Virus record (IMG/VR): IMGVR_UViG_3300045988_128165
Source: a virus
Reading direction: 5' to 3' (one strand)
DNA: 64,000 nucleotides
Below are positions 2,446 through 63,309 of this stretch, piece by piece; the stretch's first letter is position 1, and each line of letters starts with the position of its first letter. Both the position numbers and the translations under genes were made by a program. The notes under the pieces were generated by a model. The model saw only the letters and a program-made list of their open reading frames with translations. It made no database searches and had not been told where the DNA came from.

Positions 2446-2459
2446 CAGTACAAAATTAT
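2446..2459 (+). repeat. ACAATACAAAATTAT-family motif copy (CAGTACAAAATTAT)
   Basis: directly upstream of the RBS of 2476. Confidence 0.7.
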
Positions 2460-2475
2460 AGAGGAGGAAATAATT

Positions 2476-2901
2476 ATGAACGTATCAAGAGAAATTAAAA
2501 AGGAAGAAGCTATAAAACGCATGAAAGCACTTGGGCTTTTTGCTCCATGCATCAAGGCATTTAAGGACAGAGATGAGGTGCAGCTTTCAGAACCGACAGG
2601 AGGTTTGTACGAGTTCAGCGCAGACAAAGAGCTTACCGTAAAGGTAAAAGAGTTTGAGAAAGATTACAGTGCACTCGTGTATCATGTAATTCATAGTCCA
2701 ATTAAAATTGACGGCGAGTTCATGGATATGTATAATTTCTTGTATGTGTCCAATTATAGTGGCGAATGGGAAATGGATAATAGCGACATCAAGGACGGAT
2801 ATTCACTTGTTTATACATGGAATAAGACAATTGATTACTTTAGCGAATTTGGTAGCATTGCAGTTAAGCCAATGTTTGGCGGACTTGTACGAATCGGTTA
2901 A
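2476..2901 (+). CDS. hypothetical protein
   Basis: ORF track; GAGGAGG RBS. Confidence 0.6.
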   Translation: MNVSREIKKEEAIKRMKALGLFAPCIKAFKDRDEVQLSEPTGGLYEFSADKELTVKVKEFEKDYSALVYHVIHSPIKIDGEFMDMYNFLYVSNYSGEWEMDNSDIKDGYSLVYTWNKTIDYFSEFGSIAVKPMFGGLVRIG

Positions 2902-2980
2902 TAAGATTTGTTAATAACGACATATTGAATTTCAAGGCAGAGGTGATATAATAAGAATAAAGAAAAGGGAGTTGATATAA

Positions 2981-3259
2981 ATGGATAAAGACTTACAAGA
3001 TGCAGTAGAGGCGCTAATGCGTGGAATGACTTCAATGGAAGAAAGCATAAACAAAAAATTCGAAGATATAAACAAAAGACTTGACATAATGGAAACCAAG
3101 TTTTCTAAAAGATTTGACGACATGAATGACAGGTTTGACAAACTTGAAGCAAAAGTTGAAGACTTAGAGGAAGCTGTCCTTGACATGGGAATTGTTAAGG
3201 CAACTGTAGATAAGCATGATCATGACATTAAGAGATTAAAACGAAATGCAACAATGTAA
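2981..3259 (+). CDS. coiled-coil protein
   Basis: ORF track; heptad-like charged sequence. Confidence 0.55.
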   Translation: MDKDLQDAVEALMRGMTSMEESINKKFEDINKRLDIMETKFSKRFDDMNDRFDKLEAKVEDLEEAVLDMGIVKATVDKHDHDIKRLKRNATM

Positions 3260-3289
3260 GATAATGGGGCGCTTGTCCCTTGTCTTATG

Positions 3290-3303
3290 CAATACAAAAT
3301 TAT
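3290..3303 (+). repeat. motif copy (dyad GCAATA-N6-TATTGC)
   Basis: GCAATACAAAATTATTGC, 20 nt upstream of ATG 3325. Confidence 0.75.
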
Positions 3304-3324
3304 TGCAAGGAAGGAGGAATATAA

Positions 3325-3434
3325 TGCAATGCATGTATGGGGCAGAAAGTGATAACGTGTGTGCTTATTGCCGTAAGCATAGAAAATGTATGACGGTAAA
3401 GCAGGTAAAAACTAAAGAGTGCTTGCGAAAGTAG
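3325..3434 (+). CDS. small Cys-rich protein; in-frame TAG followed by a 31-codon open extension to 3530
   Basis: ATG behind AAGGAGG; ORF track 3246..3434 trimmed. Confidence 0.5.
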
Positions 3435-3545
3435 TGCTGGTATCTCGTGAAGTACGAAAACCATTCATGGTGGCGACAGCGTGAAATTATGAAAGCGAAA
3501 AGAAAAGCAAGAAAAAATATGTATTGTTAAAAGGAGATTGATATT

Positions 3546-4523
3546 ATGGCACATTGTATTGAAATGAACGATTCTATGTTTTCAGTAAGAGAAAAACCTT
3601 GGCATTATTTGGAAACTCAGGATAGATGTAAAATCCTTGCTGACGCACCTAACAGTGCAGAAGCACTTAAACTTGCAGGACTTGATTGGACTGTTGAACA
3701 GACTCCTGTATATATGGACGACGGAACCGAAATCAAGAACTACAAAGCAAATGTTAGAAGTGACGACAAGACGGTGCTCGGCATTGTAACAAACAGATAT
3801 AAAATTGTACAGAACGTAGATGCATTTTCTTTCACTGATGCAATTGTGGGTGAAACAGAAGACGGAGTGGTTCGTTACGAAACCGCAGGTTCTCTGAACG
3901 GAGGCAAAAGAGTTTGGCTGCTCGCAAAGATGCCTACCAAGAAAGTGCTTGATGATGATGTGGAACCTTATATGGTTTTCTCGAATTCTCATGACGGAAC
4001 CGGTGCAATCAAGATTTGTATGACTCCGATTCGAGTTGTTTGTAATAATACCTTGTCACTTGCCCTTAATACAGCACAGCGTTCTTGGAGTACAAAGCAC
4101 ATCGGAAACCTTGACGAAAAGCTTGCAGAAGCAAGACATTGCCTCGGTATGGCTAATATGTATATGGATGCTCTTAACGAGGAAGCCGACAGACTTGCAA
4201 ATATCAAACTTGATTATGAGCAGATTAATGAAATCCTTGACCAGATGTTCCCTGTAACAGAGAATGATTCCGACCGCAAGAAAGCAAATATTCAGAAAGT
4301 CAAAGATAATTATTCTATCTGCTATTTTATGCCTGATATTGCAAAGTTCAAGGGAACTGCATGGGCTGCTGTGAACGCCATGAGTGATATGATTGGACAC
4401 AGTGCGCCGAACAGAAATACTGCAAACTACGAAGAGAACCGTTGGGGCAAGATTATGGACGGACACGCATGGATGGACGAGTTTGTTAAACTTATTAACG
4501 CAAAGGTAGGGGCTGTGGCTTAA
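3546..4523 (+). CDS. DUF932-like phage/plasmid protein
   Basis: ORF track; overall resemblance to the phage/plasmid DUF932 family, from memory. Confidence 0.5.
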   Translation: MAHCIEMNDSMFSVREKPWHYLETQDRCKILADAPNSAEALKLAGLDWTVEQTPVYMDDGTEIKNYKANVRSDDKTVLGIVTNRYKIVQNVDAFSFTDAIVGETEDGVVRYETAGSLNGGKRVWLLAKMPTKKVLDDDVEPYMVFSNSHDGTGAIKICMTPIRVVCNNTLSLALNTAQRSWSTKHIGNLDEKLAEARHCLGMANMYMDALNEEADRLANIKLDYEQINEILDQMFPVTENDSDRKKANIQKVKDNYSICYFMPDIAKFKGTAWAAVNAMSDMIGHSAPNRNTANYEENRWGKIMDGHAWMDEFVKLINAKVGAVA

Positions 4524-4556
4524 TGCCACAGCCTACCACAAAAGGAGGTAATTAAT

Positions 4557-5722: not shown

Positions 5723-5749
5723 GACAAAACAAAATTAAAGGAGTAAAAT

Positions 5750-7486: not shown

Positions 7487-7501
7487 ACAATACAAAATTA
7501 T
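7487..7501 (+). repeat. motif copy ACAATACAAAATTAT
   Basis: starts at the base after stop codon 7484-7486 and precedes a hairpin. Confidence 0.8.
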
Positions 7502-7505
7502 TATT

Positions 7506-7530: not shown

Positions 7531-7551
7531 AATTAGAAAGGAGAAAATAAA

Positions 7552-9362: not shown

Positions 9363-9391
9363 TTGACAAGAATACAAAATTATTGCATAAT
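9363..9391 (+). promoter_or_regulatory. sigma-A-type promoter with motif in the spacer
   Basis: TTGACA, 17 nt containing AATACAAAATTAT, then CATAAT. Confidence 0.65.
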
Positions 9392-9408: not shown

Positions 9409-10095
9409 ATGACAAAAGAAAAGAAATTCTTGACTAAAGAAGAGTATGTTGATTATCTTGCCAACAAGTCAGATGAAGTGCATCTGAGTACATCAAACAG
9501 AAAGACCGGTGGATGCTGCAATGACTTGGCTTTCCCGACTTGTACGTGCCGTGATGATGCACCTTGCAAGCATGGCGGATGCTATTGTATGAAAGGAACG
9601 CAGCAAATGAGTTCTGTTTTGGCTGCATATACAAGAAATCTCAGACTGTACAATACAGACCCGCAGGATTTTTGGGAACAGGTTGTGTTTAAGGTGAAGC
9701 ATAATCCGCTTCCACTATTTAGATTCTTTGATGCTGGGGATGTACCCGATTATGATTTCTTCTGTGGAATGGTCGAACTTGCAAGGCAATTTCCTGATAT
9801 TAAGTTCATGTCGTTCACGAAAAAATATAACATTGTGAACAAGTGGCTTACTGAGAACGGAGATCTGCCAAACAATCTCAATATTATTTTCTCTGCATGG
9901 CATATTGGATGGAAGGTAGAGAATCCGTTTGGTCTTCCTATTGCATATGTGGATTTTAAAGACAAAACTCTGAATCCTGAATTCCCAAAAGAAATTACTA
10001 GTTGCCCGAATCAAAAGGATAAAACAATCACTTGCAGTAGCTGCCGCAAATGCTGGGACAAGAGAATCAAAGCAGTTAAATTTATTCAGCACTAA
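9409..10095 (+). CDS. Cys-cluster protein, function unknown
   Basis: ORF track; N- and C-terminal Cys clusters. Confidence 0.55.
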   Translation: MTKEKKFLTKEEYVDYLANKSDEVHLSTSNRKTGGCCNDLAFPTCTCRDDAPCKHGGCYCMKGTQQMSSVLAAYTRNLRLYNTDPQDFWEQVVFKVKHNPLPLFRFFDAGDVPDYDFFCGMVELARQFPDIKFMSFTKKYNIVNKWLTENGDLPNNLNIIFSAWHIGWKVENPFGLPIAYVDFKDKTLNPEFPKEITSCPNQKDKTITCSSCRKCWDKRIKAVKFIQH

Positions 10096-10109
10096 CAATA
10101 CAAAATTAT
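10095..10109 (+). repeat. motif copy ACAATACAAAATTAT
   Basis: overlaps the stop codon of 9409..10095. Confidence 0.8.
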
Positions 10110-12387: not shown

Positions 12388-12416
12388 TTGACAAAACAAA
12401 ATTATAGCAGTATAAT
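12388..12416 (+). promoter_or_regulatory. sigma-A-type promoter with motif variant in the spacer
   Basis: TTGACA, 17 nt (AAACAAAATTATAGCAG), then TATAAT. Confidence 0.7.
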
Positions 12417-13176: not shown

Positions 13177-14151
13177 ATGACAGGCAGAACTGAAAAAGAA
13201 ATTGCGTCAACTAAAAGAATGCAAGGAAAATTGAAAGAACTTCCTAAAATCTTTTCTGAATTTTATTATTATATGTGTTCAACAAAATCTTATACAACAG
13301 TTGAAAGATATATTGCATATGTAAGGGAATTTGCAGAATTCTTGAATGATGGGGACATTCCAAATAACTTTTACAAGAGAGTTACTCCGCTAGATATTAA
13401 CAAATATTTTGCGGCAATGAAGAATAAAGAAAGCGCACATGGGCATTATAATACAAGTGACAGCATTCGTGCGACAAAATGGTCTGCGCTGAATACTTTC
13501 TTTGGATTTCTTAAGAGTAATAACTATATTGCAAATAATCCAATGGAGAGAACGGAGCGTCCAAAAGTTCAAGATAGACCAGACGTTGCTTATTTGACAG
13601 AAGAAGAAATTCAGGCAATGCTGGACAATGTTAACAAACTTGCAAGCACAAAAATGAAAAACAGAGATCTGGCGATTATTATGCTTGGACTTACAACTGG
13701 ACTTCGTGTCTCAGCCATTACGCAAATTGATATTAGCGATATTGATTTTAAAAATAATACCATTAAGGTAATTGAAAAAAGAGGAAAAACATGCAACATT
13801 CTTATTGGCGACAAGGTAAAAGAACAGATCGAATTGTGGCTTCAAGATAGAAAAAAATATTTTAGCATGACAGATTCCGATGCGCTGTTTATTTCTAGTT
13901 TTAAGAAAAGAATTACTAGAGATGGAATTAGAGTGATCCTAGAGAAGTATAGTAAAGATGTTACAAATAAGCATGTTACTCCACATGTGCTAAGGCATTC
14001 TTGTGCAACAAATCTGTATGAGAAAACAGGAGATATTTATCTTTGTGCGACAGTGCTAAATCATAAAAATATTGCTACTACTATGAGATATGCAAGTATG
14101 TCTAAAGACAAAAAACAGAAAGCAGCGAACATTTTGAATGATATGATTTAA
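13177..14151 (+). CDS. tyrosine recombinase, XerC/D-like
   Basis: TGLRVSA (Arg I), HVLRHSCAT (HxxR), NHKNIATTMRY (His/Tyr). Confidence 0.8.
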   Translation: MTGRTEKEIASTKRMQGKLKELPKIFSEFYYYMCSTKSYTTVERYIAYVREFAEFLNDGDIPNNFYKRVTPLDINKYFAAMKNKESAHGHYNTSDSIRATKWSALNTFFGFLKSNNYIANNPMERTERPKVQDRPDVAYLTEEEIQAMLDNVNKLASTKMKNRDLAIIMLGLTTGLRVSAITQIDISDIDFKNNTIKVIEKRGKTCNILIGDKVKEQIELWLQDRKKYFSMTDSDALFISSFKKRITRDGIRVILEKYSKDVTNKHVTPHVLRHSCATNLYEKTGDIYLCATVLNHKNIATTMRYASMSKDKKQKAANILNDMI

Positions 14152-14157: not shown

Positions 14158-14186
14158 TTGACAATTATAATTTTGTACTGTACAAT
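14158..14186 (+). promoter_or_regulatory. sigma-A-type promoter with inverted motif in the spacer
   Basis: TTGACA, 17 nt containing ATAATTTTGTAC, then TACAAT. Confidence 0.65.
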
Positions 14187-14223: not shown

Positions 14224-15144
14224 GTGTTCTATAATGAGGAGGTTAAAATACAATTCATAAACGATTATAAGAGAAGTAGAGTCGTTAATGAAACTTCATT
14301 AACTGGAATGTTTAACAAGATATATAAATATGAAATACAAAATAAAAAAGATTGCAATAATTTTGCAATTGAAGAAATACTGGCCATGTATCGTTGCTTC
14401 AAAGCGAAATCTGTGCACGTGCTTGAGAATTACAATGTGTATTTAAAAAGCTATGCAGCGTTTTGTATGCATTATGGTTTTGGCATGGAAAACAATTACT
14501 CAAATATTAGTAAGGCCATGCTGCAAGAATGTCTTGATGAAAATATAATTAAACAAAAGTTCTTGACAAGGGAACAGTTTGACGAGGTAGAAGACGAATT
14601 ATACAACTATACAGACAAGGCGTTGCTGGAGTTACTATGGGAAGGCATTAGTGGAAAAAGCATGGAAGATATTGTTGCGTTAAAGAGAAGTATGATAAGT
14701 GAAGACAAACAATATATTTGTTTTGAAGACGGACGAAAAGTAAAGTTATCTGCAAAATTGTATAATTATTTAGACAAGGCATTTGCAGAAAAAGAATATA
14801 TGTGCTATGGGGTAACTGTTAGAGTTAAACAACTAATTGGAGACGATTGTTTATACAAGGAAATGGATAATGCGTATACAGTAGACTCTGATGATAAGTT
14901 TTTCCGTTGGGTATATAGAAGAATTCAGACATATAGGAAGCACGTAGGATTGCCATTGCTTACTATGAAGACAATTGCGGCGTCAGGGCTTTTATATAAA
15001 ATTAAACAAGCAATGGAAAAGAATAATCTTGGGCTAAGAGAATTTTTATATACAGAGGAAGGCAAAGCATTGGCACAGCAATATGGATACAAGTTAAATT
15101 CATATGTTGATGTTATTGCCAACAAGTTTGCAAGTCTGGTGTAG
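14224..15144 (+). CDS. 306-aa protein adjacent to the recombinase; candidate regulator, function unproven
   Basis: ORF track, GTG start 9 nt after AAGGAG; no catalytic recombinase motifs seen. Confidence 0.5.
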   Translation: MFYNEEVKIQFINDYKRSRVVNETSLTGMFNKIYKYEIQNKKDCNNFAIEEILAMYRCFKAKSVHVLENYNVYLKSYAAFCMHYGFGMENNYSNISKAMLQECLDENIIKQKFLTREQFDEVEDELYNYTDKALLELLWEGISGKSMEDIVALKRSMISEDKQYICFEDGRKVKLSAKLYNYLDKAFAEKEYMCYGVTVRVKQLIGDDCLYKEMDNAYTVDSDDKFFRWVYRRIQTYRKHVGLPLLTMKTIAASGLLYKIKQAMEKNNLGLREFLYTEEGKALAQQYGYKLNSYVDVIANKFASLV

Positions 15145-15176
15145 GCCGTATTATTGCGGTCTATAATTTTCTTTTG
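15143..15176 (+). terminator. intrinsic terminator
   Basis: AGGCCG/CGGTCT stem followed by a T-rich tract. Confidence 0.55.
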
Positions 15177-15180
15177 TTCA

Positions 15181-15195
15181 ACAATACAAAATTAT
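15181..15195 (+). repeat. motif copy ACAATACAAAATTAT
   Basis: between a terminator and the next promoter. Confidence 0.8.
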
Positions 15196-15208: not shown

Positions 15209-15237
15209 TTGCCGAACATACGTTTTTATTGTATAAT
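15209..15237 (+). promoter_or_regulatory. sigma-A-type promoter
   Basis: TTGCCG, 17 nt, TATAAT. Confidence 0.6.
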
Positions 15238-15299: not shown

Positions 15300-15551
15300 A
15301 TGGAAAAGAAAATTGTAAATGACTTACATAATCTAAATGGTAAGAATGGGGAAATAACAATACATCATGATTGGTATGGAAATCAAAAAATTAGGGGAAT
15401 TTTCCATATTATTGATGATGGAGAAAGGATTGGTGTTAAATTGAAAGATAATGAAATCTTTTTATGGAACAATGAAATTACAAACATTGAGGTAAGTGGA
15501 AATTACGCAATGATCAAAGGGGAGTCCATGCAAATTAAAATCGAAATATAA
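15300..15551 (+). CDS. hypothetical protein
   Basis: ORF track 15240..15551 trimmed to the ATG behind GGGGAG. Confidence 0.5.
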   Translation: MEKKIVNDLHNLNGKNGEITIHHDWYGNQKIRGIFHIIDDGERIGVKLKDNEIFLWNNEITNIEVSGNYAMIKGESMQIKIEI

Positions 15552-15576: not shown

Positions 15577-15605
15577 TTGACAAGACACAATTATTATGGT
15601 ATAAT
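15577..15605 (+). promoter_or_regulatory. sigma-A-type promoter with motif-like spacer
   Basis: TTGACA, 17 nt (AGACACAATTATTATGG), then TATAAT. Confidence 0.7.
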
Positions 15606-15623
15606 GCAATCGTAATGAGATGT

Positions 15624-15636
15624 AATACAAAATTAT
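15624..15636 (+). repeat. motif copy AATACAAAATTAT in the leader
   Basis: about 19 nt downstream of the -10 box. Confidence 0.75.
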
Positions 15637-15899: not shown

Positions 15900-15914
15900 A
15901 CAATACAAAATTAT
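15900..15914 (+). repeat. motif copy ACAATACAAAATTAT
   Basis: 22 nt upstream of ATG 15937. Confidence 0.8.
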
Positions 15915-17020: not shown

Positions 17021-17050
17021 GTCTAGGGAAGAATTAAATCTTCCCTAGAC
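17021..17050 (+). terminator. 12-bp perfect hairpin, no T tract
   Basis: GTCTAGGGAAGA-loop-TCTTCCCTAGAC; 3' arm runs into the next motif copy. Confidence 0.45.
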
Positions 17051-17063
17051 AATACTAAATTAT
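17049..17063 (+). repeat. motif variant ACAATACTAAATTAT
   Basis: upstream of the GIY-YIG gene. Confidence 0.7.
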
Positions 17064-21601: not shown

Positions 21602-21608
21602 GGCTATA

Positions 21609-21620
21609 GTACAAAATTAT
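21609..21620 (+). repeat. motif copy GTACAAAATTAT in the leader
   Basis: 8 nt downstream of the -10 box. Confidence 0.75.
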
Positions 21621-23936: not shown

Positions 23937-23951
23937 ACAATACAAAATTAT
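23937..23951 (+). repeat. motif copy ACAATACAAAATTAT in the P2 leader
   Basis: 19 nt downstream of the -10 box. Confidence 0.8.
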
Positions 23952-23977: not shown

Positions 23978-24322
23978 ATGGCTATTCAGTATTATAGCAA
24001 CCCAAACACGAAGGAAACGTTCGCCGTTCTAAGAGGAACTGAGCTTGATGCAATTAATAAGATTGATAAGTTTCTCAATGAGTTTGACTGTTATATGATT
24101 CGTGAGAAGTACATGATGCCTAAGCAGTTTAAGGTTAAGGTCAAGCTTGCGAAAGGTGATGTGTACGACGAGGAGAAGGGCAAGATGCTTGCAAAGGAAA
24201 AGCTTATGAAGAAGTATTATAGTGCTTTTGATAAGCGAATTGATATGTTTAGAGCAGATCTGATTGCACTAAACAGTCGTGTATTTGAAACTCCAGTAGA
24301 AATTCTTGAAAATACCCCTTGA
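23978..24322 (+). CDS. hypothetical protein, probably highly expressed
   Basis: ORF track; AAG/GAG-biased codons; two consensus promoters upstream. Confidence 0.6.
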   Translation: MAIQYYSNPNTKETFAVLRGTELDAINKIDKFLNEFDCYMIREKYMMPKQFKVKVKLAKGDVYDEEKGKMLAKEKLMKKYYSAFDKRIDMFRADLIALNSRVFETPVEILENTP

Positions 24323-24347
24323 CAATATGAAATTATTGTGGTATAAT
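24319..24347 (+). promoter_or_regulatory. consensus sigma-A promoter P3 with motif variant in the spacer
   Basis: TTGACA, ATATGAAATTATTGTGG, TATAAT. Confidence 0.75.
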
Positions 24348-24468: not shown

Positions 24469-24483
24469 ACAGTACAAAATTAT
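24469..24483 (+). repeat. motif copy ACAGTACAAAATTAT in the P4 leader
   Basis: 14 nt downstream of the -10 box. Confidence 0.8.
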
Positions 24484-29705: not shown

Positions 29706-29720
29706 ACAATACAAAATTAT
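29706..29720 (+). repeat. motif copy ACAATACAAAATTAT
   Basis: 15 nt upstream of ATG 29735; TTGACA at 29665 upstream. Confidence 0.8.
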
Positions 29721-30950: not shown

Positions 30951-31115
30951 ATGGATGAGCTAAAACCCTGTCCTTTTTGTGGGAATGCGCCCAATATGCG
31001 AATTACTGGATATGGAGCAGTATATGTGAGATGTCCTAACTGCGGAGTTGAAACACCTTATTATCAGAATGTTGAACTCGCAACACTTAAATGGAATATG
31101 AGAATTGAGTGTTGA
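30951..31115 (+). CDS. Lar-like restriction-alleviation protein
   Basis: MDELKPCPFCG...RCPNCG zinc ribbon; ORF track 30771 trimmed. Confidence 0.55.
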   Translation: MDELKPCPFCGNAPNMRITGYGAVYVRCPNCGVETPYYQNVELATLKWNMRIEC

Positions 31116-31140
31116 CAATACGAAATTATAGTGTTACAAT
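31112..31140 (+). promoter_or_regulatory. sigma-A-type promoter with motif in the spacer
   Basis: TTGACA, ATACGAAATTATAGTGT, TACAAT. Confidence 0.7.
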
Positions 31141-31175: not shown

Positions 31176-31337
31176 ATGAAAATGAAAAAATACATAATTA
31201 TATACAAGGATAGAGGAAAACACAAATGGGCTGAATCAGACAGCTTAGAGATACTACAAAGCATTTTTAGTAAATGTAGTTGGATTAAAGAATACAAAAT
31301 TATTGACACATCAAATTTTAAGGAGGCAATGGATTAA
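31176..31337 (+). CDS. 53-aa protein
   Basis: ATG behind TAAGGAG; contains motif copy 31291-31303. Confidence 0.5.
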   Translation: MKMKKYIIIYKDRGKHKWAESDSLEILQSIFSKCSWIKEYKIIDTSNFKEAMD

Positions 31338-31560: not shown

Positions 31561-32664
31561 ATGATTTACCTAGATAACGCTGCTACATCTCCAATTTGTG
31601 AAGCCGCAAAGAATATTATCCTTGACAATCTTGACGAATATTACAATCCAAACAGTTCATATGAGGATGCTCGTGGAGTAAAGATTAAGGTCGAGGAAGC
31701 ACGTGAAAAGATTGCGGCACTAATTGGAGCACAACCTGACGAGATTTACTTTACTTCTGGTGGATCTGAAGCAAATTCATGGGTTTCAAATCATGATTTT
31801 ACACTAGCATCTAACATTGAGCATCATTCTATTGATCCAGACTATAAATTCAAGGTCGATTATAGAGGAATGGTTGATATAGAGAAATTTGAAAAAAGAG
31901 TAAATGAATTGCAGAATAATTATTTCGGTATTAGTCCGGGTATTGCTTCATGTATGATGGTAAATAATGAACTTGGAGTTATTGAGCCAATTGAAGAACT
32001 AGCAAAGATTGCTCATGATAATCATATGTTGTTCCATACAGATGCAGTTCAGGCATTCCCTCATATGAAAATTAATGTAGAAGAGCTTGGCGTAGATATG
32101 TTGTCATGCTCTGCTCATAAGTTTGGTGGGATTAAAGGATGCGGATTCCTTTATATCAAAGATGGAATTCATATTCATCCTTTAATTAATGGTGGAAGCC
32201 AAGAAAGAGGAATCAGAGGTGGCACAACTAATGTCCTTGGTGTCTTGGCTATGGCTGCTGCGCTAGAAGATACGACAACCCATATGAATGGAAATAATGC
32301 AAAAATTGCACGTTTATCCAATAAGATTAAAGATAATTTATTGAATGTAAAAGGTGTCACAATTAATGGGGCAACAGATAAAAAGCAGCATTTAGACAGT
32401 ATTTTGAACTTTAGAATTGATGGTGTACATGGTTCAGATGTTGTTGCGATGGCTGACGAATTTGGGATTGCTATTAGTGCTGGTTCAGCTTGCAATGAAG
32501 GTGATGCCATTCCATCTCATGTGCTAAAAGCAATTGGTTTGTCTGACGAAGAGGCACTAAGTAGCATTCGTGTATCTCTTGGAAGATATAATACAGAAGA
32601 AGAAATTGATTATGCTTGTGTGATTCTTCCAAAGGTCATTGAAAGATTGAGATCACTTAATTGA
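31561..32664 (+). CDS. cysteine desulfurase (NifS/IscS-like, class V PLP enzyme)
   Basis: SAHKFGG (PLP lysine) and SAGSACN (active-site Cys loop). Confidence 0.8.
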   Translation: MIYLDNAATSPICEAAKNIILDNLDEYYNPNSSYEDARGVKIKVEEAREKIAALIGAQPDEIYFTSGGSEANSWVSNHDFTLASNIEHHSIDPDYKFKVDYRGMVDIEKFEKRVNELQNNYFGISPGIASCMMVNNELGVIEPIEELAKIAHDNHMLFHTDAVQAFPHMKINVEELGVDMLSCSAHKFGGIKGCGFLYIKDGIHIHPLINGGSQERGIRGGTTNVLGVLAMAAALEDTTTHMNGNNAKIARLSNKIKDNLLNVKGVTINGATDKKQHLDSILNFRIDGVHGSDVVAMADEFGIAISAGSACNEGDAIPSHVLKAIGLSDEEALSSIRVSLGRYNTEEEIDYACVILPKVIERLRSLN

Positions 32665-32666
32665 TA

Positions 32667-32678
32667 GTACAAAATTAT
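32667..32678 (+). repeat. motif copy GTACAAAATTAT
   Basis: 16 nt upstream of ATG 32695. Confidence 0.75.
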
Positions 32679-36806: not shown

Positions 36807-36835
36807 TTGACAATACAAAATTATTGACATATAAT
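36807..36835 (+). promoter_or_regulatory. consensus sigma-A promoter with motif in the spacer
   Basis: TTGACA, ATACAAAATTATTGACA, TATAAT. Confidence 0.8.
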
Positions 36836-39823: not shown

Positions 39824-39852
39824 TTGACAATACCAAATTATTGTGATATAGT
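39824..39852 (+). promoter_or_regulatory. sigma-A-type promoter with motif variant in the spacer
   Basis: TTGACA, ATACCAAATTATTGTGA, TATAGT. Confidence 0.7.
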
Positions 39853-39873: not shown

Positions 39874-41589
39874 ATGCATTTGAAATATAAATTAATAGGC
39901 AATAATGATACTACAAATATTTTAAAAACAGTATTAAATAATAGAGGAATTGAAAATTATAATAAATACCTAGCATTGTGTGACAATTGCTCCGACGATT
40001 GGAATAATTTAGATAATGTAGATGATGCAGTGACATATTTCAATTACCACCTCTCTAATCATCATTCTATTGCAATCTTACAGGATACAGATCCAGATGG
40101 AGTATGTAGTTCGACAATTATGTATCAATATATTAAACTAATGGATGCAGACTATCCAGTATCAATTGTTGTGCATAAGCAGAACAAGTCACACGGCCTA
40201 GCATTTTGGGACTTTGATATTCCAGACAACACAAAATTATTGATTATTCCCGATGCAGGAAGTAATGATGTGGATGAATGTAAAAAGTTAATCAACGATG
40301 GTATTGGAGTAATTGTTCTTGATCACCATCAGGTGTCAACAGACAAATTAAATCCTGCTGTTGTAGTAAATAACCAAACATCTAATGGGTATCCAAATAA
40401 GGAAGCATGTGGCGCTCATGTTACATATAATTTTCTGCAAGCATTAGATGATTATTATTGGAATGATTTTTGTGAAGAGTATTTTACTGATCTAGTAGCA
40501 TTAGCAGACATTTCAGATGTAATGTCAATGAAATCATTTAATACTCGTGCGATGGTTAATTATGGGATAGATAATATCAACAATAAAATGTTTAAAGAGA
40601 TTCTTAATGCTCAGGAATTTTCTACAAAATGTATCGTGTCTCCATTTACAATTGCATTCTACGTTACTCCTTTGATTAATGCATTTTTAAGAAGTGCAAC
40701 TTATGAAGAGCGTCAAATTCTTGCAAGAGCTTTTTATGAGGACGAATCTGAATTTTTTGAATATACAAAACGTGGTGATGATTTTCCGACAGCAGAAAAT
40801 ATCTATCAGCATTGTGTTAGACTTATGAAATCCTATAAGGGCAAACAAGACCGCGCTAGAGACAAAGCATATAAAACATTTATAAGTCAAAATAGTGATT
40901 CAGATGATAAAATAGCAATTATTGATGCGACTGGAGTGCTAGATTCTGCATATACGGGGCTTGTGGCGATCAAGCTCTCAGAAGCGCTTAATAAGCCTGT
41001 ACTTCTTGTGAGAAAAGTGGATGATGGATTCGCTGGTAGTGGTAGATCATTTGATTATTGCCCAATTGAAGACTTTAGAGCGATGACAGAATCATGCCCT
41101 GAAACAGTATTTGCACAAGGACATCCTAGTGCCTATGGCGTTGAATTAAAGGATATTAATAAGGCACGAGAATGGTTTAATGAAAATCTTAAAGACGTAT
41201 CTTTTGAAAAAATATATGTAGTAGATTTCATTGTTGATGCAGAAGATGTATCAATTTCGTGGTGTCAAGAACTTGATAAATATAAATCAACTTTTGCACA
41301 TGGAGTAGACGAACCATTGTGGTTGATTAAAGATTTATATATATCTAATGATAATGCTAAAATTGTCGGCAAGAACGATGATACAATTCAAATTTATGAC
41401 GAGGACACGAATATCAAATATGTTATGTTCAAATGCGATGAATCAAATGAAGTGTCTGATTGGATGAATAATAATTTTGCAGGAGAAGAGACATATATTA
41501 ATGTAATTGGTACATTGGGTATTAACGTATATAATGGACAAGTTTCTCCACAAGTATTAATTAAAGAATGTGAGATTAGAAAGGATTAA
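39874..41589 (+). CDS. DHH-family phosphoesterase, RecJ-like
   Basis: DTDPDG and VLDHHQ motifs; internal motif copy at 40226-40240. Confidence 0.65.
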   Translation: MHLKYKLIGNNDTTNILKTVLNNRGIENYNKYLALCDNCSDDWNNLDNVDDAVTYFNYHLSNHHSIAILQDTDPDGVCSSTIMYQYIKLMDADYPVSIVVHKQNKSHGLAFWDFDIPDNTKLLIIPDAGSNDVDECKKLINDGIGVIVLDHHQVSTDKLNPAVVVNNQTSNGYPNKEACGAHVTYNFLQALDDYYWNDFCEEYFTDLVALADISDVMSMKSFNTRAMVNYGIDNINNKMFKEILNAQEFSTKCIVSPFTIAFYVTPLINAFLRSATYEERQILARAFYEDESEFFEYTKRGDDFPTAENIYQHCVRLMKSYKGKQDRARDKAYKTFISQNSDSDDKIAIIDATGVLDSAYTGLVAIKLSEALNKPVLLVRKVDDGFAGSGRSFDYCPIEDFRAMTESCPETVFAQGHPSAYGVELKDINKAREWFNENLKDVSFEKIYVVDFIVDAEDVSISWCQELDKYKSTFAHGVDEPLWLIKDLYISNDNAKIVGKNDDTIQIYDEDTNIKYVMFKCDESNEVSDWMNNNFAGEETYINVIGTLGINVYNGQVSPQVLIKECEIRKD

Positions 41590-49931: not shown

Positions 49932-49960
49932 TTGACAATACGAAATTATCGTGCTATTAT
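49932..49960 (+). promoter_or_regulatory. sigma-A-type promoter with motif in the spacer
   Basis: TTGACA, ATACGAAATTATCGTGC, TATTAT. Confidence 0.7.
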
Positions 49961-50003
49961 AACAATGCAAACAGTACAAGATTATAGTTTTGGGGTGATG
50001 TGT

Positions 50004-50668: not shown

Positions 50669-50683
50669 ACAATACAAAATTAT
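50669..50683 (+). repeat. motif copy ACAATACAAAATTAT
   Basis: 16 nt upstream of ATG 50700. Confidence 0.8.
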
Positions 50684-50885: not shown

Positions 50886-52028
50886 TTGGAGCTAACAGAT
50901 GGACAGAAGAAAGGACTAGAGGTAGCTTGCCAGCGGTATAAAGAACATAAGCCATATACTGTTATTGCAGGGTATGCTGGCTCTGGAAAAAGTTTCTTAG
51001 TACAATATATTATTAAAGAACTAAAGTTAAAAGATAATGAAGTCATCTTTGTTGCGTTTACAGGAAAAGCGTCGTTGGTTCTCAAAGAAAAGGGCAATAA
51101 AAATACAATGACGGCTCACAAGCTGTTATATCACTCAGAAGAGCAAGAAGATGGCACATATATTCATACTCCGAAGACCAAACTTGACCATAAATACAAG
51201 CTTATTGTCGTTGACGAGGCGAGTATGTTGCCGCAGGAAATGATTGATTTGTTGCTGTCTCATCATGTATACACCATTTTCCTTGGTGATCCAGCGCAGC
51301 TTCCACCAATCTCTGGAGAGCAAACTATTTTGAGCAATCCACACGTTTTTCTTGATGAAATTGTGCGACAGGCTATTGATAATCCGATTATTAAACTTTC
51401 TATGGATATTCGGCATGGAATGAAGCTGCATTATACTGCAGAGGATAAACGATGCCGTGTTCTTCCTAGAAGTAAAGTGTCAGATAAAATGCTGCTTGGT
51501 GCAGATCAGATTCTTTGTGGGAAAAATAAAACTCGGAATGAGCTTAACTACTACATGAGAAAACTAATTCTCGGAGACAACTATAGCGACGAGCCAGTAG
51601 AAGGAGATAAAGTAATTTGCCTTAAAAATAGCTGGAATAAAATTAATAACGTCGGTAACGAGCTTGTTAATGGTACTATCGGTACGTTGCAAAATATTCG
51701 CATTATGGAATCAAACTTTTATTGGAAAGTGATTTATGCTACATTCGCTTCTAATGATGGTGGAATCTACAAAGACCTTATGATTGACTATCAGTTGCTT
51801 ACTACTGGCAAGCCGACTGTGAATGCTGATAATTGGAAGCAATTCGCGGGGATTGAGAAGCCACTACAGTTTGCTTTCGGCTATGTGTGCACCGTACATA
51901 AATACCAAGGCTCAGAGGCTGACAGAGTTGTAGTTTTTGACGAGGCGTTTGGCAACGCGGACGAACAAAGAAAATGGCGATACACAGCTTGCACAAGAGC
52001 GGCGAAACAATTGGTATTAGTGGAATAA
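50886..52028 (+). CDS. RecD-like SF1 DNA helicase
   Basis: GYAGSGKS, VDEASML, TVHKYQGSE. Confidence 0.75.
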   Translation: MELTDGQKKGLEVACQRYKEHKPYTVIAGYAGSGKSFLVQYIIKELKLKDNEVIFVAFTGKASLVLKEKGNKNTMTAHKLLYHSEEQEDGTYIHTPKTKLDHKYKLIVVDEASMLPQEMIDLLLSHHVYTIFLGDPAQLPPISGEQTILSNPHVFLDEIVRQAIDNPIIKLSMDIRHGMKLHYTAEDKRCRVLPRSKVSDKMLLGADQILCGKNKTRNELNYYMRKLILGDNYSDEPVEGDKVICLKNSWNKINNVGNELVNGTIGTLQNIRIMESNFYWKVIYATFASNDGGIYKDLMIDYQLLTTGKPTVNADNWKQFAGIEKPLQFAFGYVCTVHKYQGSEADRVVVFDEAFGNADEQRKWRYTACTRAAKQLVLVE

Positions 52029-52042
52029 CAATACAAAATTAT
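52028..52042 (+). repeat. motif copy ACAATACAAAATTAT
   Basis: overlaps the last base of the helicase stop codon; 22 nt upstream of the dnaE ATG. Confidence 0.8.
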
Positions 52043-55000: not shown

Positions 55001-55301
55001 TGAAAACATAGACATTGGCGACAAATGTGTAACAGTTGGCGTTATTTCCAAGATCCAAAAGAAAAAAACTAAGAAGGGTCAGCAATTTGCTTTTGCTAAT
55101 TTATATTCAGGGAATGGCTTAATCGAACTGACAATTTGGCCTGACGCTTTACAAAAATTTCAAGATTTAATTGTAAAAGGACAGCAGGTAGCAGTGCTTG
55201 GGAAAAAGGAAGCAGACGATAAAGTTATCGTAGATCGAATGAAACCCTACACCGTTTGGCTCTCATCAATTAAACGACTACGTGCCAAAAAGACCTCTTG
55301 A
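52065..55301 (+). CDS. dnaE: DNA polymerase III alpha subunit
   Basis: PHP motif SLHNHSMYSLLDG, length about 1080 aa; start moved to the ATG behind AAGGAGG. Confidence 0.9.
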   Translation: MSYSSLHNHSMYSLLDGYATCEEYLNRAKEIGLKAFCITEHGNAYSWCYFDKLKKDYPEIKMLYGVEFYECFDRNEKNKDSKYFHLIAICMNERGRIALNELITLSELHGKYYRPRVTIYDMEPYANDLIVSSACLASKLSKEQDYNKCVGYVNEYKSIFPHFYLEIQAHGNNPDQEAYNKKILQLAKDTDTKWIITTDSHAATKDDLYYQGRLVQIAHDTETMSESYNDCYLMSESEIHNVLDEQIGIEAVNVGLENTNEIADMCDIVNMPFQAPKLPTFPLPEGFSDNYEYLKHSIKEGWYRHHFDEFSAEKKQQYKERLEYELGIIHQMGFDGYFLIVADFIKWCKENNNKVGVGRGSCAGSLTCYTIEITDIDPMKYGLIFERFLNPERVSMPDTDTDVFDRTSVINYLVEKYGEDRVCQIINFSFITPVVSLKDTGKILGFSYKEMDKLSKGFVYPTFEECLANNKEAANNPKYTELFDIASHLSGRVKTTSIHAGGVGIVDGKVSDFMPMKLGPDGEHVIQVDKRIVEEISIIKYDILGVSSLGLVQQAQLMAGVSDWEININNPEFEFDTASYELLSSAMTNGVFQVESQGMKDLLVRLHPTELSQISAVLALYRPDSMGALEEYIECSKHPEKVTYIHPDMEPILKETFGCMIYQEQLLDIVRKFGGRSYGGADLFRKAIGKKNVELVKQESAKLYQEIIDNGYSKELAKQISDDLSTKGGYLFNKSHSYSYAVLCLQTAYLKCHYSKYFFCALFNMNKNKPGMINKHILDARQFNVDILPPDINKSEMNFSVVDGKILFGYSAISGIGETLAASIINERNTNGKFTNFNDFVERVQPTKSQIISLVKSGAIPTKNKKKFLINYFKSQYEQKEYKPVSSLPSKMKLLVEWNIDTSEYMIGKKMNKERVLAVYNDKRKVQFDEEQKNKYQSYIDECTEKYLKDEDFWEFETLQIFLTDENPFTEAYKLIDDFENIDIGDKCVTVGVISKIQKKKTKKGQQFAFANLYSGNGLIELTIWPDALQKFQDLIVKGQQVAVLGKKEADDKVIVDRMKPYTVWLSSIKRLRAKKTS

Positions 55302-55325
55302 CAACACAAAATTATTGTGCTATAA
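55297..55325 (+). promoter_or_regulatory. consensus sigma-A promoter with motif in the spacer
   Basis: TTGACA, ACACAAAATTATTGTGC, TATAAT; overlaps the dnaE stop. Confidence 0.75.
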
Positions 55326-55359: not shown

Positions 55360-55725
55360 ATGGATGAAAATGAAAACTATGAACAGCCAGAGAGCGTTGA
55401 AAGCGTAGAAGAAGCAGACGAGCAAGCCACGCCAGCATCTGAACTAGCAAACGATGAGCTCAAGGAGGCAATTACTACACAGATGAAGAAGGTACAGATG
55501 GCGGCTTTGCTCAGTGGATCGAAAGCAATTTGTGGCGTTGTGCTTCAGTACATTGCGGAGTTCAAGCGCCAACCGGGCAAGAAGTCGGCAAATGATTACA
55601 AGCGACTAATTAAGAAGATTGAACATTTTTGCTCAATTAGTCTGAGCAAGGACATTAACGAGAATGGCGATATTGTTGATGTCAAGAAGGAAGAAGAGAA
55701 TACTTCCGAACCAGAGCAGGATTAA
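55360..55725 (+). CDS. hypothetical acidic protein
   Basis: ORF track. Confidence 0.55.
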   Translation: MDENENYEQPESVESVEEADEQATPASELANDELKEAITTQMKKVQMAALLSGSKAICGVVLQYIAEFKRQPGKKSANDYKRLIKKIEHFCSISLSKDINENGDIVDVKKEEENTSEPEQD

Positions 55726-55739
55726 CAATACAAAATTAT
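55725..55739 (+). repeat. motif copy ACAATACAAAATTAT
   Basis: 11 nt upstream of ATG 55751. Confidence 0.8.
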
Positions 55740-58579: not shown

Positions 58580-58586
58580 TTAACGT

Positions 58587-59126
58587 ATGAACTATTTAGG
58601 AATTAGTAAATGCTCGATTGCAGATGGCACCGGAGTACGTTGTATACTCTGGTGCTCTGGGTGTACAATGCATTGTTATAACTGCCAAAATCCACAGACA
58701 TGGGATTTTAATGCAGGAGCTGTATTTGACAGTGCAGCGAAAGAACGTCTATTTGAGGCGTTGAATCATCCATACATTCAAGGGCTAACTCTTAGTGGTG
58801 GGCATCCTCTAGAATATGAGAACCTTCAAACTGTATATGATATTATTAAAGAGTTTAAAGAAAAATTTCCAGACAAAGATGTCTGGCTCTATACTGGATA
58901 TACTTTAAAAATTAATGATTTTGATACAGCAGTTGATGTCGGTTGGGACAATGGCCTACTAAGAAATTACATCCTAGCAATGTGTGATGTCGTGGTGGAT
59001 GGAAACTATGTAGACTCTTTGAGAGACTTAACATTGCCATTCAGGGGAAGCTCAAATCAACGACTTATTGACGTTAACGAGACAATTAAACAAGGACAAA
59101 TTGTTCTATACAACACAAAATTATAA
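58587..59126 (+). CDS. nrdG: anaerobic RNR activating enzyme (radical SAM)
   Basis: CSGCTMHCYNCQN cluster; follows nrdD. Confidence 0.85.
   Translation: MNYLGISKCSIADGTGVRCILWCSGCTMHCYNCQNPQTWDFNAGAVFDSAAKERLFEALNHPYIQGLTLSGGHPLEYENLQTVYDIIKEFKEKFPDKDVWLYTGYTLKINDFDTAVDVGWDNGLLRNYILAMCDVVVDGNYVDSLRDLTLPFRGSSNQRLIDVNETIKQGQIVLYNTKL
59110..59124 (+). repeat. motif variant ACAACACAAAATTAT
   Basis: overlaps the last codons of nrdG, upstream of 59151. Confidence 0.7.
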
Positions 59127-59150
59127 ATTTCAACAAAGGAGTAATGAATT

Positions 59151-59459
59151 ATGGAAGACTACGGTACGAGAGAGAAGACAATTGAAGAACTAGAGGAAGA
59201 GCTAAAGGCGGCTTCCGAAAATTATAAGCGACTTAATGATCTTGTTAAGCAGAAGAAGGACGCAGAAGAGAAGAAGCGCAATCAGAAGATTGAGGCCGAA
59301 AAGAAGGAGCGCATGAAACACATTGATGAAAGCCTTAGTGCTGTTAATGACGAGATCAAGCAGTACCTAAACGATTATGGTGTTCTACGACTAAACAAGC
59401 GCTATTATTACCTAAATTATGTATTCAATGGCACCAGCCCGTTCTGGATTGATTTTTAA
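59151..59459 (+). CDS. coiled-coil protein
   Basis: ORF track. Confidence 0.55.
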   Translation: MEDYGTREKTIEELEEELKAASENYKRLNDLVKQKKDAEEKKRNQKIEAEKKERMKHIDESLSAVNDEIKQYLNDYGVLRLNKRYYYLNYVFNGTSPFWIDF

Positions 59460-59476
59460 TCTTGGAGGTTGTTAAC

Positions 59477-59962: not shown

Positions 59963-60006
59963 ACATTGGACAAATAATGACTGAAAAGATAATACGGAGG
60001 CGGAAT

Positions 60007-61837: not shown

Positions 61838-61842
61838 TAACT

Positions 61843-62391
61843 ATGCACACGGTATTCCTAATTGTTGGGAAAAGTTCTTCTGGAAAGGACTCACTTGTAA
61901 ACAAGCTATGCAACGAGCACGGATATCGACAGTTAAAATCATATGCGACTCGTCCTCGCAGAAAAGACGAAGGAGACACTCATACTTTTATTACAAAGGA
62001 CGAAGTTGCTCAATATCAAGGTCAAATGATTGCTTATACGCAAATTGGAGACGCAATTTATTTTGCGACAAAAGACCAGCTTATGGAATCGGATCTGTAT
62101 TGCATTGACTATCGTGGTATTGAGTATATGCATTCACTTTCGCTTGATCTTTCTGATGTTCGCTTCGTAACAATTTACATTCATGTGCCAGATGATATTC
62201 GTGAAGAGCGAGCTATCAATGGCAGAAAAGACGATGCACTTACGTTTTACAAACGCTGTTTCAATGAGAACGAGCAGTTTTCGGAGATGATTATGCGAGA
62301 CGATTTTGACTATGCAATTTCAAATATTGATTTTAACAAAGCGTATAAAATTTTTGAAACAATTATTGAGGAGGAACTAAAAGATGATTAA
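61843..62391 (+). CDS. guanylate-kinase-like (d)NMP kinase
   Basis: VGKSSSGKDSL P-loop, SYATRPRR segment. Confidence 0.5.
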   Translation: MHTVFLIVGKSSSGKDSLVNKLCNEHGYRQLKSYATRPRRKDEGDTHTFITKDEVAQYQGQMIAYTQIGDAIYFATKDQLMESDLYCIDYRGIEYMHSLSLDLSDVRFVTIYIHVPDDIREERAINGRKDDALTFYKRCFNENEQFSEMIMRDDFDYAISNIDFNKAYKIFETIIEEELKDD

Positions 62392-62569
62392 GCGTGACAT
62401 TACAGAAACTATTTACGAATATGATAAGACCGGCAATCTTGTTCAGAAGACTGTCACAGAGACTCATGAAGTAGACGATGAGACAAGATATCCTCCAGTC
62501 AATTGGGCTTCTACTACATACGTAGGAGATACAACAGCGCACAATTGCACGTGTAGTAGCCATTCTTGA
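62384..62569 (+). CDS. hypothetical protein
   Basis: ORF track. Confidence 0.5.
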   Translation: MIKRDITETIYEYDKTGNLVQKTVTETHEVDDETRYPPVNWASTTYVGDTTAHNCTCSSHS

Positions 62570-62610
62570 CTCAAAAAATGCGTATAAATGCGCAAAACTG
62601 AATAGCAATA

Positions 62611-62652
62611 TGTCGGTAGTGTAATTTCTCACATTACCGGCATATTTATTTA
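62611..62652 (+). terminator. intrinsic terminator
   Basis: TGTCGGTAGTGTAA/TCACATTACCGGCA stem followed by a T-rich tract. Confidence 0.6.
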
Positions 62653-62707
62653 TCAAAATGCAATGATATAATATAAAATATAGCAAATATAATAGGAGAG
62701 TGATAAT

Positions 62708-62902
62708 ATGAAATACATAACAGTAAAACAATTATATGAAAAATTAAATGCAGAGCATCCGGGACTAATTGGAATTAATAGTGTCTATGAGCTTGTCAAA
62801 CGTAAAGACTTCCCGTCAATTAGAAATGGGCGTAAATTCCTTATCATTGAGGACAAAGTTGATGAATGGTTTGAAAAGAAAAGTTTGGCTTATAAAAGAT
62901 AG
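62708..62902 (+). CDS. excisionase-family HTH DNA-binding protein
   Basis: 64 aa with HTH-like VYELVKRKDFPSIRNGRKFLI; sits next to the int module. Confidence 0.6.
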   Translation: MKYITVKQLYEKLNAEHPGLIGINSVYELVKRKDFPSIRNGRKFLIIEDKVDEWFEKKSLAYKR

Positions 62903-62917
62903 ATAAACTATATTGAA

Positions 62918-63240
62918 TTGTGGTCAAAAGATGTGGTACAATAAAATTGTGGTAAATGATGTGGTCATTCAGCAAAAACATATCACTTAAATCTAGGAGA
63001 ATCAATGACTTGAGTTGTTTTTATTTATGGACACTTATGGTTCATATAGCCTGAGAAACAGCCATAAAAACATAATAGAACAGCTATTCACAAACACAAG
63101 TCTAAAGCATTGGAGCTAGAATATATGCTGGTTTAAGCTTGCTTTGGAAGAAAATTGTATTCACTCGATATCACCAATAATCTTGTACTATTATGATAAA
63201 TAATCAAAAAATTGTGGTATTATTGTGGTACGATTGTGAC
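62918..63240 (+). repeat. seven direct (A/T)TGTGGT(A/C) repeats in two clusters (candidate integrase arm sites)
   Basis: copies near 62919, 62932, 62948, 62960 and 63212, 63223, 63234. Confidence 0.65.
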
Positions 63241-63252
63241 TAAAAATTGCCA

Positions 63253-63281
63253 TTGACCATATTGTTTTCATCAAATATAAT
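63253..63281 (+). promoter_or_regulatory. sigma-A-type promoter of int
   Basis: TTGACC, 17 nt, TATAAT. Confidence 0.65.
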
Positions 63282-63294
63282 AATGATATGAACT

Positions 63295-63309
63295 ATAATT
63301 TTGTATTGT
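63295..63309 (-). repeat. inverted motif copy (ATAATTTTGTATTGT)
   Basis: in the int leader. Confidence 0.75.

Follow-up and report, generated by a model that had tools for sequence, protein, structure and literature searches.

What is the role of a short sequence that stands, in copy after copy, ahead of the genes of a phage? The question is raised by a window of 64,000 nt from the virus record IMGVR_UViG_3300045988_128165 (the whole stretch of DNA analysed here), in which a 15-nt element, ACAATACAAAATTAT, recurs between positions 2445 and 63309. An initial annotation, made from the letters alone, had interpreted the copies as a DNA operator for one global regulator. This interpretation is supported by protein family, by promoter geometry and by conservation across lineages: the element is most probably the operator of the master repressor of the phage, a protein of the MrpR/SroF family encoded at 14224-15144, and as such the counterpart of the SPBRE of phage SPbeta and of the SroF box of phage phi3T. 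The assignment of protein to element follows from homology and from their co-occurrence.

The element is strongly enriched. With up to two mismatches allowed, 35 matches to ACAATACAAAATTAT were found in the window, against 0.95 expected on the basis of 100 dinucleotide-preserving shuffles, none of which gave more than 3; a lack of enrichment over shuffled sequence, which the initial annotation had allowed for, was not observed. A 17-nt weight matrix, applied to the full 64-kb window with a cut-off at or above the best score seen among 30 shuffled windows, yielded 32 strong copies. Orientation with the genes and intergenic placement, both proposed before, hold for nearly all of them: 29 of the 32 lie on the plus strand (binomial p = 2.6e-6) and 28 lie in non-coding DNA, which makes up 12.6% of the window (p = 1.5e-21), the copy at 40226 within the RecJ-like gene being the only clearly intragenic one. 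The 29 positions listed previously were all found again, with offsets of 0-3 nt that are confined to copies with a degenerate 5' end (e.g. 2445 vs 2446 and 12391 vs 12394), and the list proved to have overlooked four copies, at 5724, 15163 (minus strand), 15580 and 49971.

In an alignment of the best 24 copies the conserved unit consists of ACAATACAAAATTAT, followed by W and then, in 16 of the 24, by G; no conservation was seen in this alignment past the W and G. The full dyad CAATA-N6-TATTG, attributed earlier to many copies, turned out to be present in only six of the 32 strong copies, and a palindrome or dyad was dropped as a general property of the element. A dyad is also unnecessary, since the published binding of the protein family is monomeric. 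Copies with a G at motif position 4 (ACAGTAC) have an A at position 16 (TATAG) in six out of six cases; those with ACAATAC mostly run on as TATTG. This pairing hints at two sub-types of site, the association being weak (hand-computed one-sided Fisher p about 0.014).

The location of the copies relative to promoters argues for a function at the DNA level, because sites are placed within promoter DNA. A consensus scan identified 15 strong intergenic sigma-A-like promoters on the plus strand, 14 of which carry a copy of the element; at the remaining one, promoter 23809, the copy has decayed, with an intact counterpart in a close relative (L009). The three contexts distinguished in the initial annotation are all present. 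Nine copies lie in promoter spacers, and in seven of these the register is fixed: motif position 1 coincides with position 4 of the -35 box, so that TTGACA is fused to the element and the remainder of the element fills the spacer (of the other two, that at 9369 is shifted by 3 nt and that at 15580 is degenerate). Six copies, against four counted before, are found 4-18 nt 3' of a -10 box. The promoterless copies, about 15 in number, often begin at the stop codon of the preceding gene or no more than 1 nt from it, with 9-50 nt between their end and the next start codon. Most promoters are marked by the element, yet about half of the copies are intra-operonic and only about six have a terminator-like hairpin within 70 nt upstream; the earlier statement that the element punctuates the transcription units is therefore true of about half of the copies.

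Which protein would recognise these sites? Three candidate regulators had been named. The one encoded at 14224-15144 is supported by Pfam (MrpR_N_CB, 6.7e-11; MrpR_C_cat, 1.1e-5), by a profile search of the PDB and by Foldseek. The other two found no support as binders, the product of 13177-14151 looking like an intact tyrosine recombinase and that of 341-799 having no informative match. A family profile made from the 14224-15144 protein and 11 homologues matched the SroF-DNA complex of phi3T (9rd5, E = 4.5e-24) and MrpR of SPbeta (8a0a, E = 9e-21). The AlphaFold (AF2) model of the protein (predicted local distance difference test, pLDDT, 83) gave the same two structures as top Foldseek matches (9rd5, 6.7e-12; 8a0a, 2.5e-11), followed by 8bj6 and 9rgl, down to 1.5e-8, with true recombinases at 8e-5 or worse; 9rd5 of phi3T is the best match in structure as well as in profile.

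Mapping of the catalytic positions, by alignment to MrpR and its published residue table rather than by structural superposition, places I142/S143 at Arg-I, K249 at His-II and A252/A253 at Arg-II. Among the eight lineages compared here (the window and seven further ones, with repressors 43-61% identical to that of the window), none has an Arg at either catalytic Arg position in the alignment. The 14224-15144 protein is a member of the MrpR/SroF family that has the tyrosine-recombinase fold and is devoid of the catalytic arginines; the SPbeta repressor, too, has a recombinase fold without the full catalytic set. Opposite the residues of the base-reading SroF helix alpha-13 (F234, H237, R238) the alignment has F227, Y231 and R232, which are conserved across the sampled lineages, and F227, R228, Y231 and R232 are invariant in a 12-sequence alignment.

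Element and repressor are found together. Homologues of the repressor range from 98% down to 43% identity, many of them on 160-170-kb contigs, and the two co-occur in all eight sampled lineages (43-100% identity). A search of the related phages, suggested by the initial annotation, found the core ACAATACAAAATTA to be invariant in the seven further lineages, with many co-oriented copies that occupy the same three contexts and corresponding junctions, the flanks being different. In lineages with a repressor identity of 55% or more the 3' end of the element reads TTAT(T/A)G; the endings are of mixed TTAT types in L135 (repressor 44% identical), TTAAT in L011 and L013 (47%) and mostly TTAA(T) in L012 (45%). 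At the position aligned with Y26, a base-reading residue in the CB domain of SroF, the TTAT lineages have T, T, S, S or N, and the three TTAAT lineages all have Y. This covariation with the 3' end of the element, read from aligned sequences, is suggestive and makes the residue a candidate specificity determinant.

The experimental precedents come from SPbeta and phi3T. MrpR (YopR, SroF) is the master repressor of SPbeta; it represses PaimR and PyosX and binds SPBRE in chromatin affinity purification sequencing (ChAP-seq) and in electrophoretic mobility shift assays (EMSA), and its ten ChAP-seq peaks all lie at SPBRE-bearing promoters, the 15-bp motif deduced from them being SPBRE (PMC10516654). 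SroF of phi3T binds as a monomer to a 26-bp asymmetric, A-tract-rich box, nearly encircling the DNA and reading 24 bp of it, and each phage has its own SroF repressor-motif pair (bioRxiv 10.1101/2025.11.27.690993). The oriented, non-palindromic nature of the element is explained by this mode of binding, since SroF contacts an asymmetric box as a monomer. The parallel with SPBRE and a recombinase-fold repressor, which the initial annotation had drawn, checks out both in PMC10516654 and in our comparison with the SPbeta genome. Rederived from the ten ChAP-seq targets, SPBRE reads roughly (T)AGACAAATACAAA(T/A)AATATGTATATAAT: a GACA resembling a -35 box is followed by 17 nt of conserved spacer and by a -10 box. 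Further copies follow a promoter or directly precede a ribosome-binding site (RBS), and each of the roughly 14 copies in SPbeta points the same way as the genes downstream of it. In the 41 kb of phi3T that were scanned, 24 occurrences of the box core on the gene strand and three on the opposite one compare with 2.5 expected; the A-rich strand of the box is the coding strand, and many boxes lie immediately before or over an RBS. Gene co-orientation, an A-rich coding strand and the spacer, post -10 and pre-RBS contexts are thus common to the window, SPbeta and phi3T.

The sequences themselves differ. The core is ATACAAAATTAnTG in the window, ATACAAA-N5-TG in SPbeta and ATAAAATTAcTG in phi3T, the 3' part being related in the latter (AAAATTAcTG vs AAAATTAtTG). 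No copy of the window motif was found in SPbeta at up to one mismatch, ACAATACAAAATTAT in the window standing against CAAATACAAATAATATGTAT in SPbeta, and only short cores are in common (ATACAAA...TG with SPbeta, AAAATTAnTG with phi3T). The density of copies in the window is roughly five times that in SPbeta (32 strong copies in 64 kb vs about 14 in 134 kb) and similar to that in phi3T, which has a box about every 2 kb.

Comparable logic is known from other repressor systems. The C1 protein of coliphage P1 is a single monomeric repressor with many dispersed, asymmetric 17-bp operators that serve many transcription units, as in the window, although protein fold, operator sequence and phage lineage are all unrelated. 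The operators of lambda CI/Cro overlap early promoters and the promoter of the repressor itself, again as in the window, but they are palindromic, bound by dimers and confined to two loci, whereas the window sites are asymmetric and number more than 30 over about 70 kb.

The alternative that survives best leaves the element an operator and assigns it to another protein, be it the SroD/YopP-like product of 13177-14151, a small unannotated regulator or a host factor. Work by Brady et al. from 2023 reportedly found that repression in the SPbeta family needs several proteins, SroD, SroE and SroF, which counts for such a binder. The modest EMSA specificity of MrpR alone (PMC10516654) points the same way. 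However, ChAP-seq and the co-crystal structure tie the element of this family to MrpR/SroF itself, and the DNA-reading positions of the protein are conserved in parallel with the conserved core of the element, so that we consider another binder unlikely. The box of the host regulator CodY matched at one half-site only, by eye, and was rejected.

The element might instead be a promoter, or a promoter module, for a phage sigma factor, an activator or a YonO-type RNA polymerase, with each copy starting a transcript just before the RBS. Nearly all copies do share the orientation of the genes and have a start codon 0-50 nt further on, the promoterless ones would yield short RBS-bearing leaders, and the 3' part of the element, AATTAT, is weakly -10-like. 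On the other hand, nine copies are situated inside the spacers of complete consensus sigma-A promoters and six at variable distances past a -10 box. Since the position relative to the -10 box varies (4-18 nt in the window, 1-18 nt in the relatives), there is no fixed start-site geometry, and a fixed promoter geometry was rejected. Moreover, inverted copies occur within promoters that fire opposite to the element, the RBS begins 0-3 nt after several copies and leaves no room for a start site, and the counterparts in SPbeta and phi3T are, by experiment, repressor sites. All this makes a promoter function very unlikely.

Another reading has the element act in the messenger RNA (mRNA). It might be an A-rich leader or intercistronic signal free of structure, for instance one that enhances translation or is bound by a ribonuclease or some RNA-binding protein. 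The strand bias (29 of 32) would be accounted for, some 21 copies would be part of a transcript right in front of an RBS, and the A/U-rich sequence is largely unpaired in predicted folds. The spacer copies, however, lie outside the transcript of their own promoter, and yet seven of them are held in one register relative to the -35 box; conservation extends to the inverted copies of the repressor promoter; and the 60-nt contexts of the copies showed no excess structure on folding (mean z = -0.34), a weak hairpin being restricted to six of the 32. We regard a role in mRNA as highly improbable. In a search of Rfam at gathering thresholds only tRNAs were found.

That the copies are recombination sites or cassette boundaries, integron-like or mosaic-joint, used by the recombinase of 13177-14151 or by homologous recombination, is scarcely credible. 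In its favour, an intact-looking recombinase gene lies beside the repressor gene, the copies are co-oriented at gene boundaries, six have a short dyad, and one relative (L008) lacks precisely the 2.6 kb that separate the 7487 copy from the 10095 copy. Against it, only 10 of 82 breakpoint clusters (34 related loci) map to within 25 nt of a copy, which is no excess with about one quarter of the gene junctions carrying one; most insertions and deletions end at copy-free junctions; and core sites typically have two inverted arms flanking a 6-8-bp overlap, whereas the element has no such arms. A lone deletion between direct repeats, moreover, is what ordinary recombination would be expected to give. 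The segment in question corresponds to 7487-10109 of the window and to 5560-5650 of L008; because the junction lies inside the shared 17 nt, the event was a deletion or an insertion between direct repeats.

The locus of the repressor bears on the operator reading as well. Three copies in the window are inverted: one in the spacer of the repressor promoter, a degenerate one behind the hairpin that follows the repressor gene, and a perfect one at the integrase promoter (Table 1). The inverted copy in the repressor promoter is found in six of the eight lineages; in the clade of L011 and L013 a 13-bp perfect palindrome (TTCCAACATTTGT...ACAAATGTTGGAA, at about 9910-9960) replaces it. In SPbeta the repressor gene ends the six-gene sro operon, whereas in the window it has its own promoter with the inverted copy. 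A tyrosine-recombinase gene just upstream and an SOS box after the repressor gene are shared with SPbeta. The recombinase matches Pfam Phage_integrase (4e-36), has the R...HxxR...H...Y motifs and gives a weak BLASTP match to YopP of SPbeta (5e-5). An SOS-like box after the repressor gene was found in three lineages, being a perfect GAAC-N4-GTTC at the equivalent place in L010 and L012; it is not present in L011 and L013.

In phi3T, induction proceeds through a small antirepressor, Sar (YopT in SPbeta), the gene of which lies beside the repressor gene under the control of a LexA box (bioRxiv 10.1101/2025.11.27.690993). In the window, an 83-aa open reading frame (ORF) lies behind the SOS-box promoter, in agreement with the sroF-sar layout as to position and SOS box. 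Its AF2 model is all-beta (pLDDT 87). Foldseek of this model against the PDB gave nothing below E = 0.02 and no match to the Sar/YopT structures 2DLB or 9rgl, BLASTP against YopT reached E = 0.15 only, no PHROG or Pfam matches were obtained, and only six homologues of the protein were found. Its identification as Sar/YopT is not supported, as neither fold nor sequence matches; where phi3T has Sar under SOS control downstream, the window has an all-beta candidate of a different fold. If it is an antirepressor, the 83-aa protein is no homologue of Sar, and it would then possibly represent a new antirepressor type. The -10 box of the SOS-box promoter is overlapped by a sequence at 15232-15247, TATAATTTTTGTATAAG, that looks like an inverted copy of the element with a T too many; going by this resemblance, the SOS-box promoter may be under the control of the repressor too.

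Table 1. Copies of the element and features associated with them in the window
Feature	Position	Strand	Context
Promoterless copy	2445..2459	+	16 nt before start codon 2476
Promoterless copy	3289..3303	+	20 nt before start 3324
Degenerate promoterless copy	5724..5738	+	1 nt after stop 5722, 11 nt before start 5750
Promoterless copy	7487..7501	+	abuts stop codon 7486; GC-rich hairpin next
Spacer copy, register shifted 3 nt	9369..9383	+	promoter TTGACA(9363)-17-CATAAT
Promoterless copy	10095..10109	+	overlaps stop codon 10095
Spacer copy	12391..12405	+	promoter 12388, TTGACA-17-TATAAT
Tyrosine recombinase gene	13177..14151	+	directly upstream of repressor gene; YopP/SroD position of SPbeta
Repressor gene promoter, TTGACA-17-TACAAT	14158..14186	+	inverted element copy in spacer
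Inverted spacer copy, ACAGTACAAAATTAT	14167..14181	-	promoter of repressor gene
MrpR/SroF-family gene, 306 aa, GTG start	14224..15144	+	proposed element binder
Inverted degenerate copy	15163..15177	-	after terminator-like hairpin of repressor gene; divergent pair with 15181 copy
Direct copy	15181..15195	+	between repressor gene and promoter with SOS-like box
Promoter TTGCCG-17-TATAAT	15209..15237	+	SOS (LexA)-like box GAACATACGTTT at 15214-15225 in spacer
83-aa ORF	15300..15551	+	behind SOS-box promoter; putative antirepressor by its position
Degenerate spacer copy	15580..15594	+	promoter 15577
Post -10 copy	15622..15636	+	16 nt past -10 box of promoter 15577
Promoterless copy	15900..15914	+	22 nt before YorF-like gene at 15937
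Promoterless copy	17049..17063	+	before GIY-YIG endonuclease gene at 17084
Post -10 copy	21606..21620	+	4 nt past -10 box of TTGACA-16-TATACT
Post -10 copy	23937..23951	+	18 nt past -10 box of promoter 23890
Spacer copy	24322..24336	+	promoter 24319
Post -10 copy	24469..24483	+	13 nt past -10 box of promoter 24427
Post -10 copy	29706..29720	+	13 nt past -10 box of promoter 29665
Spacer copy	31115..31129	+	promoter 31112
Promoterless copy	31289..31303	+	36 nt before start 31340
Promoterless copy	32664..32678	+	overlaps stop 32664; 16 nt before RNA ligase gene
Spacer copy	36810..36824	+	promoter 36807
Spacer copy	39827..39841	+	promoter 39824, ahead of RecJ-like gene
Intragenic copy	40226..40240	+	within RecJ-like gene
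Spacer copy	49935..49949	+	promoter 49932
Second copy at promoter 49932	49971..49985	+	10 nt past -10 box
Promoterless copy	50669..50683	+	16 nt before start 50700
Promoterless copy	52028..52042	+	overlaps stop 52028; 16 nt before DNA polymerase III alpha gene
Spacer copy	55301..55315	+	promoter 55298, directly 3' of polymerase gene
Promoterless copy	55725..55739	+	overlaps stop 55725; about 11 nt before NT5C-like gene
Promoterless copy	59110..59124	+	in last codons of gene ending 59126; 26 nt before start 59151
Inverted perfect copy	63295..63309	-	11 nt past -10 box of TTGACC(63253)-17-TATAAT; 13 nt before integrase start 63323
Fixed-register spacer copies	12391, 24322, 31115, 36810, 39827, 49935, 55301	+	promoter scan
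Copies 4-18 nt past -10 box	15622, 21606, 23937, 24469, 29706, 49971	+	promoter scan

By analogy with the solved relative, we infer that a monomer of the 14224-15144 protein would wrap an asymmetric, A-tract-rich site with the conserved core ACAATACAAAATTAT(W)(G). In the lysogen, copies in spacers or just past a -10 box would keep RNA polymerase from initiating or from escaping the promoter. The promoterless copies, between stop codon and RBS in long co-directional early operons, may act as extra anchoring or roadblock sites against read-through, and the inverted copies at the repressor's own promoter and at the integrase promoter would provide autoregulation and control of integration functions. 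Induction would proceed via a LexA-controlled small protein, as in phi3T and SPbeta, a route to which the SOS-like box after the repressor gene points. The circuitry of lysogeny and induction predicted in this manner comprises an autoregulated repressor promoter, the gene behind the SOS-like box and a set of operator-controlled early promoters.

Several points weigh against the identification of the element as the operator of this repressor. The link between protein and site rests on co-occurrence and on homology, at 22-25% identity to SroF and MrpR. The conserved stretch measures 15-17 nt, against the 26 nt stated for the phi3T box. About half of the copies are without a recognisable promoter, and classical operator logic has no need of those; the near-total co-orientation with the genes would equally be expected of a signal at the RNA level or of a special promoter. 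Homologues of the second SPbeta repressor, SroE/YopQ, and of AimR were not detected in the window by tblastn of all window proteins against SPbeta (E <= 1e-4), a search of limited sensitivity that leaves about 90 kb of the phage outside. The small SOS-linked protein does not have the Sar/YopT fold. Finally, the covariation of one residue of the repressor with one position of the element could be plain phylogenetic inertia. The same tblastn search matched no SPbeta genes other than yorI, yorJ, yorK, yorL, yorS and an HNH gene, and near the repressor gene there is no ORF of roughly 380 aa or 460 aa.

All elements of the proposed system may also be taken together, in a picture that we offer tentatively and that is rather doubtful as a whole. 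The approximately 15 promoterless copies would form a genome-wide roadblock array that silences a 70-kb co-directional block, the inverted copies would have an orientation-dependent outcome (autoregulation, or sparing of the lysogeny genes), and induction would be brought about by an SOS-controlled, all-beta, non-Sar protein, the whole constituting a distinct SroF variant in phages of gut Clostridia that do without arbitrium.

A system of the same kind has already been described in SPbeta and phi3T, and no new principle is involved. New are its occurrence in an uncharacterised, abundant family of gut phages, with no arbitrium or SroE genes detected in the window, the high density of copies, the conserved inverted copy in the repressor promoter and the non-Sar candidate gene behind the SOS-like box. 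A recombinase-fold master repressor with dispersed operators is thereby extended from the Bacillus arbitrium phages to a family of gut phages of roughly 155 kb. The analysis provides an operator consensus, a full map of the sites and a natural series of repressor/operator variants, from which it may be learned how a monomeric integrase-like protein reads DNA.

The window is 87% coding, with all genes of real length on the plus strand. The plus-strand early block begins about 4.9 kb upstream of the window and ends with the integrase gene at 63323, which is cut by the window end; minus-strand structural genes flank the block on both sides. Upstream of the window, a divergent minus-strand promoter has a minus-oriented copy of the element, and in 7.8 kb of late tail genes no copy was found. 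In the contig L138 this promoter lies in a stretch of about 2.2 kb without called genes (1695-3945), between minus-strand YonV_C-like genes and the plus-strand early block. The early genes encode, among others, DNA polymerase III alpha, a DnaB-like helicase, a RecJ-like nuclease, an NAD-dependent ligase, an anaerobic ribonucleotide reductase and an RNA ligase. Members of the SPbeta families YorF and YorH and an AAA_24 protein are also present, and the matches to yorI, yorJ, yorK and yorL follow the order of SPbeta.

The sequence of the window is present on contigs of about 154-156 kb in many metagenomes. No known phage was matched in a megablast search of 50,697 phage records with an 8-kb part of the window, and the phages of a paper on R. 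gnavus proved to be small and unrelated. A genome collection at species level contains a single relative, a contig of 162 kb placed in the bin of a Faecalimonas metagenome-assembled genome. The host is probably a member of the gut Clostridia, to which this bin points weakly, whereas that of SPbeta is Bacillus; an anaerobic host would fit, since the early block encodes an anaerobic reductase.

Some minor features of the window may be added. About seven short repeats of the form TGTGGT(A/C) precede the integrase gene in two clusters (62910-62970 and 63205-63240); they could be arm-type integrase sites, iterons or the sites of another regulator. The gene of a GIY-YIG homing endonuclease (17049-18094) has its own copy of the element, and in one relative (L007, 11677-12706) a second, paralogous endonuclease is found just after the 15900 copy, displacing the YorF-like gene from that copy. 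Genes of nucleotide metabolism are grouped at 55360-62391 and encode NrdD and its activase, a dUTPase, an NT5C nucleotidase, a xanthine/uracil permease and a guanylate kinase. Finally, a cluster of ten tRNA genes (25661-29583), specific for Leu (two), Arg, Tyr, Ile, Thr, Phe, Met, Gln and Gly, is broken by an ORF of 256 aa with an HNH-like match.

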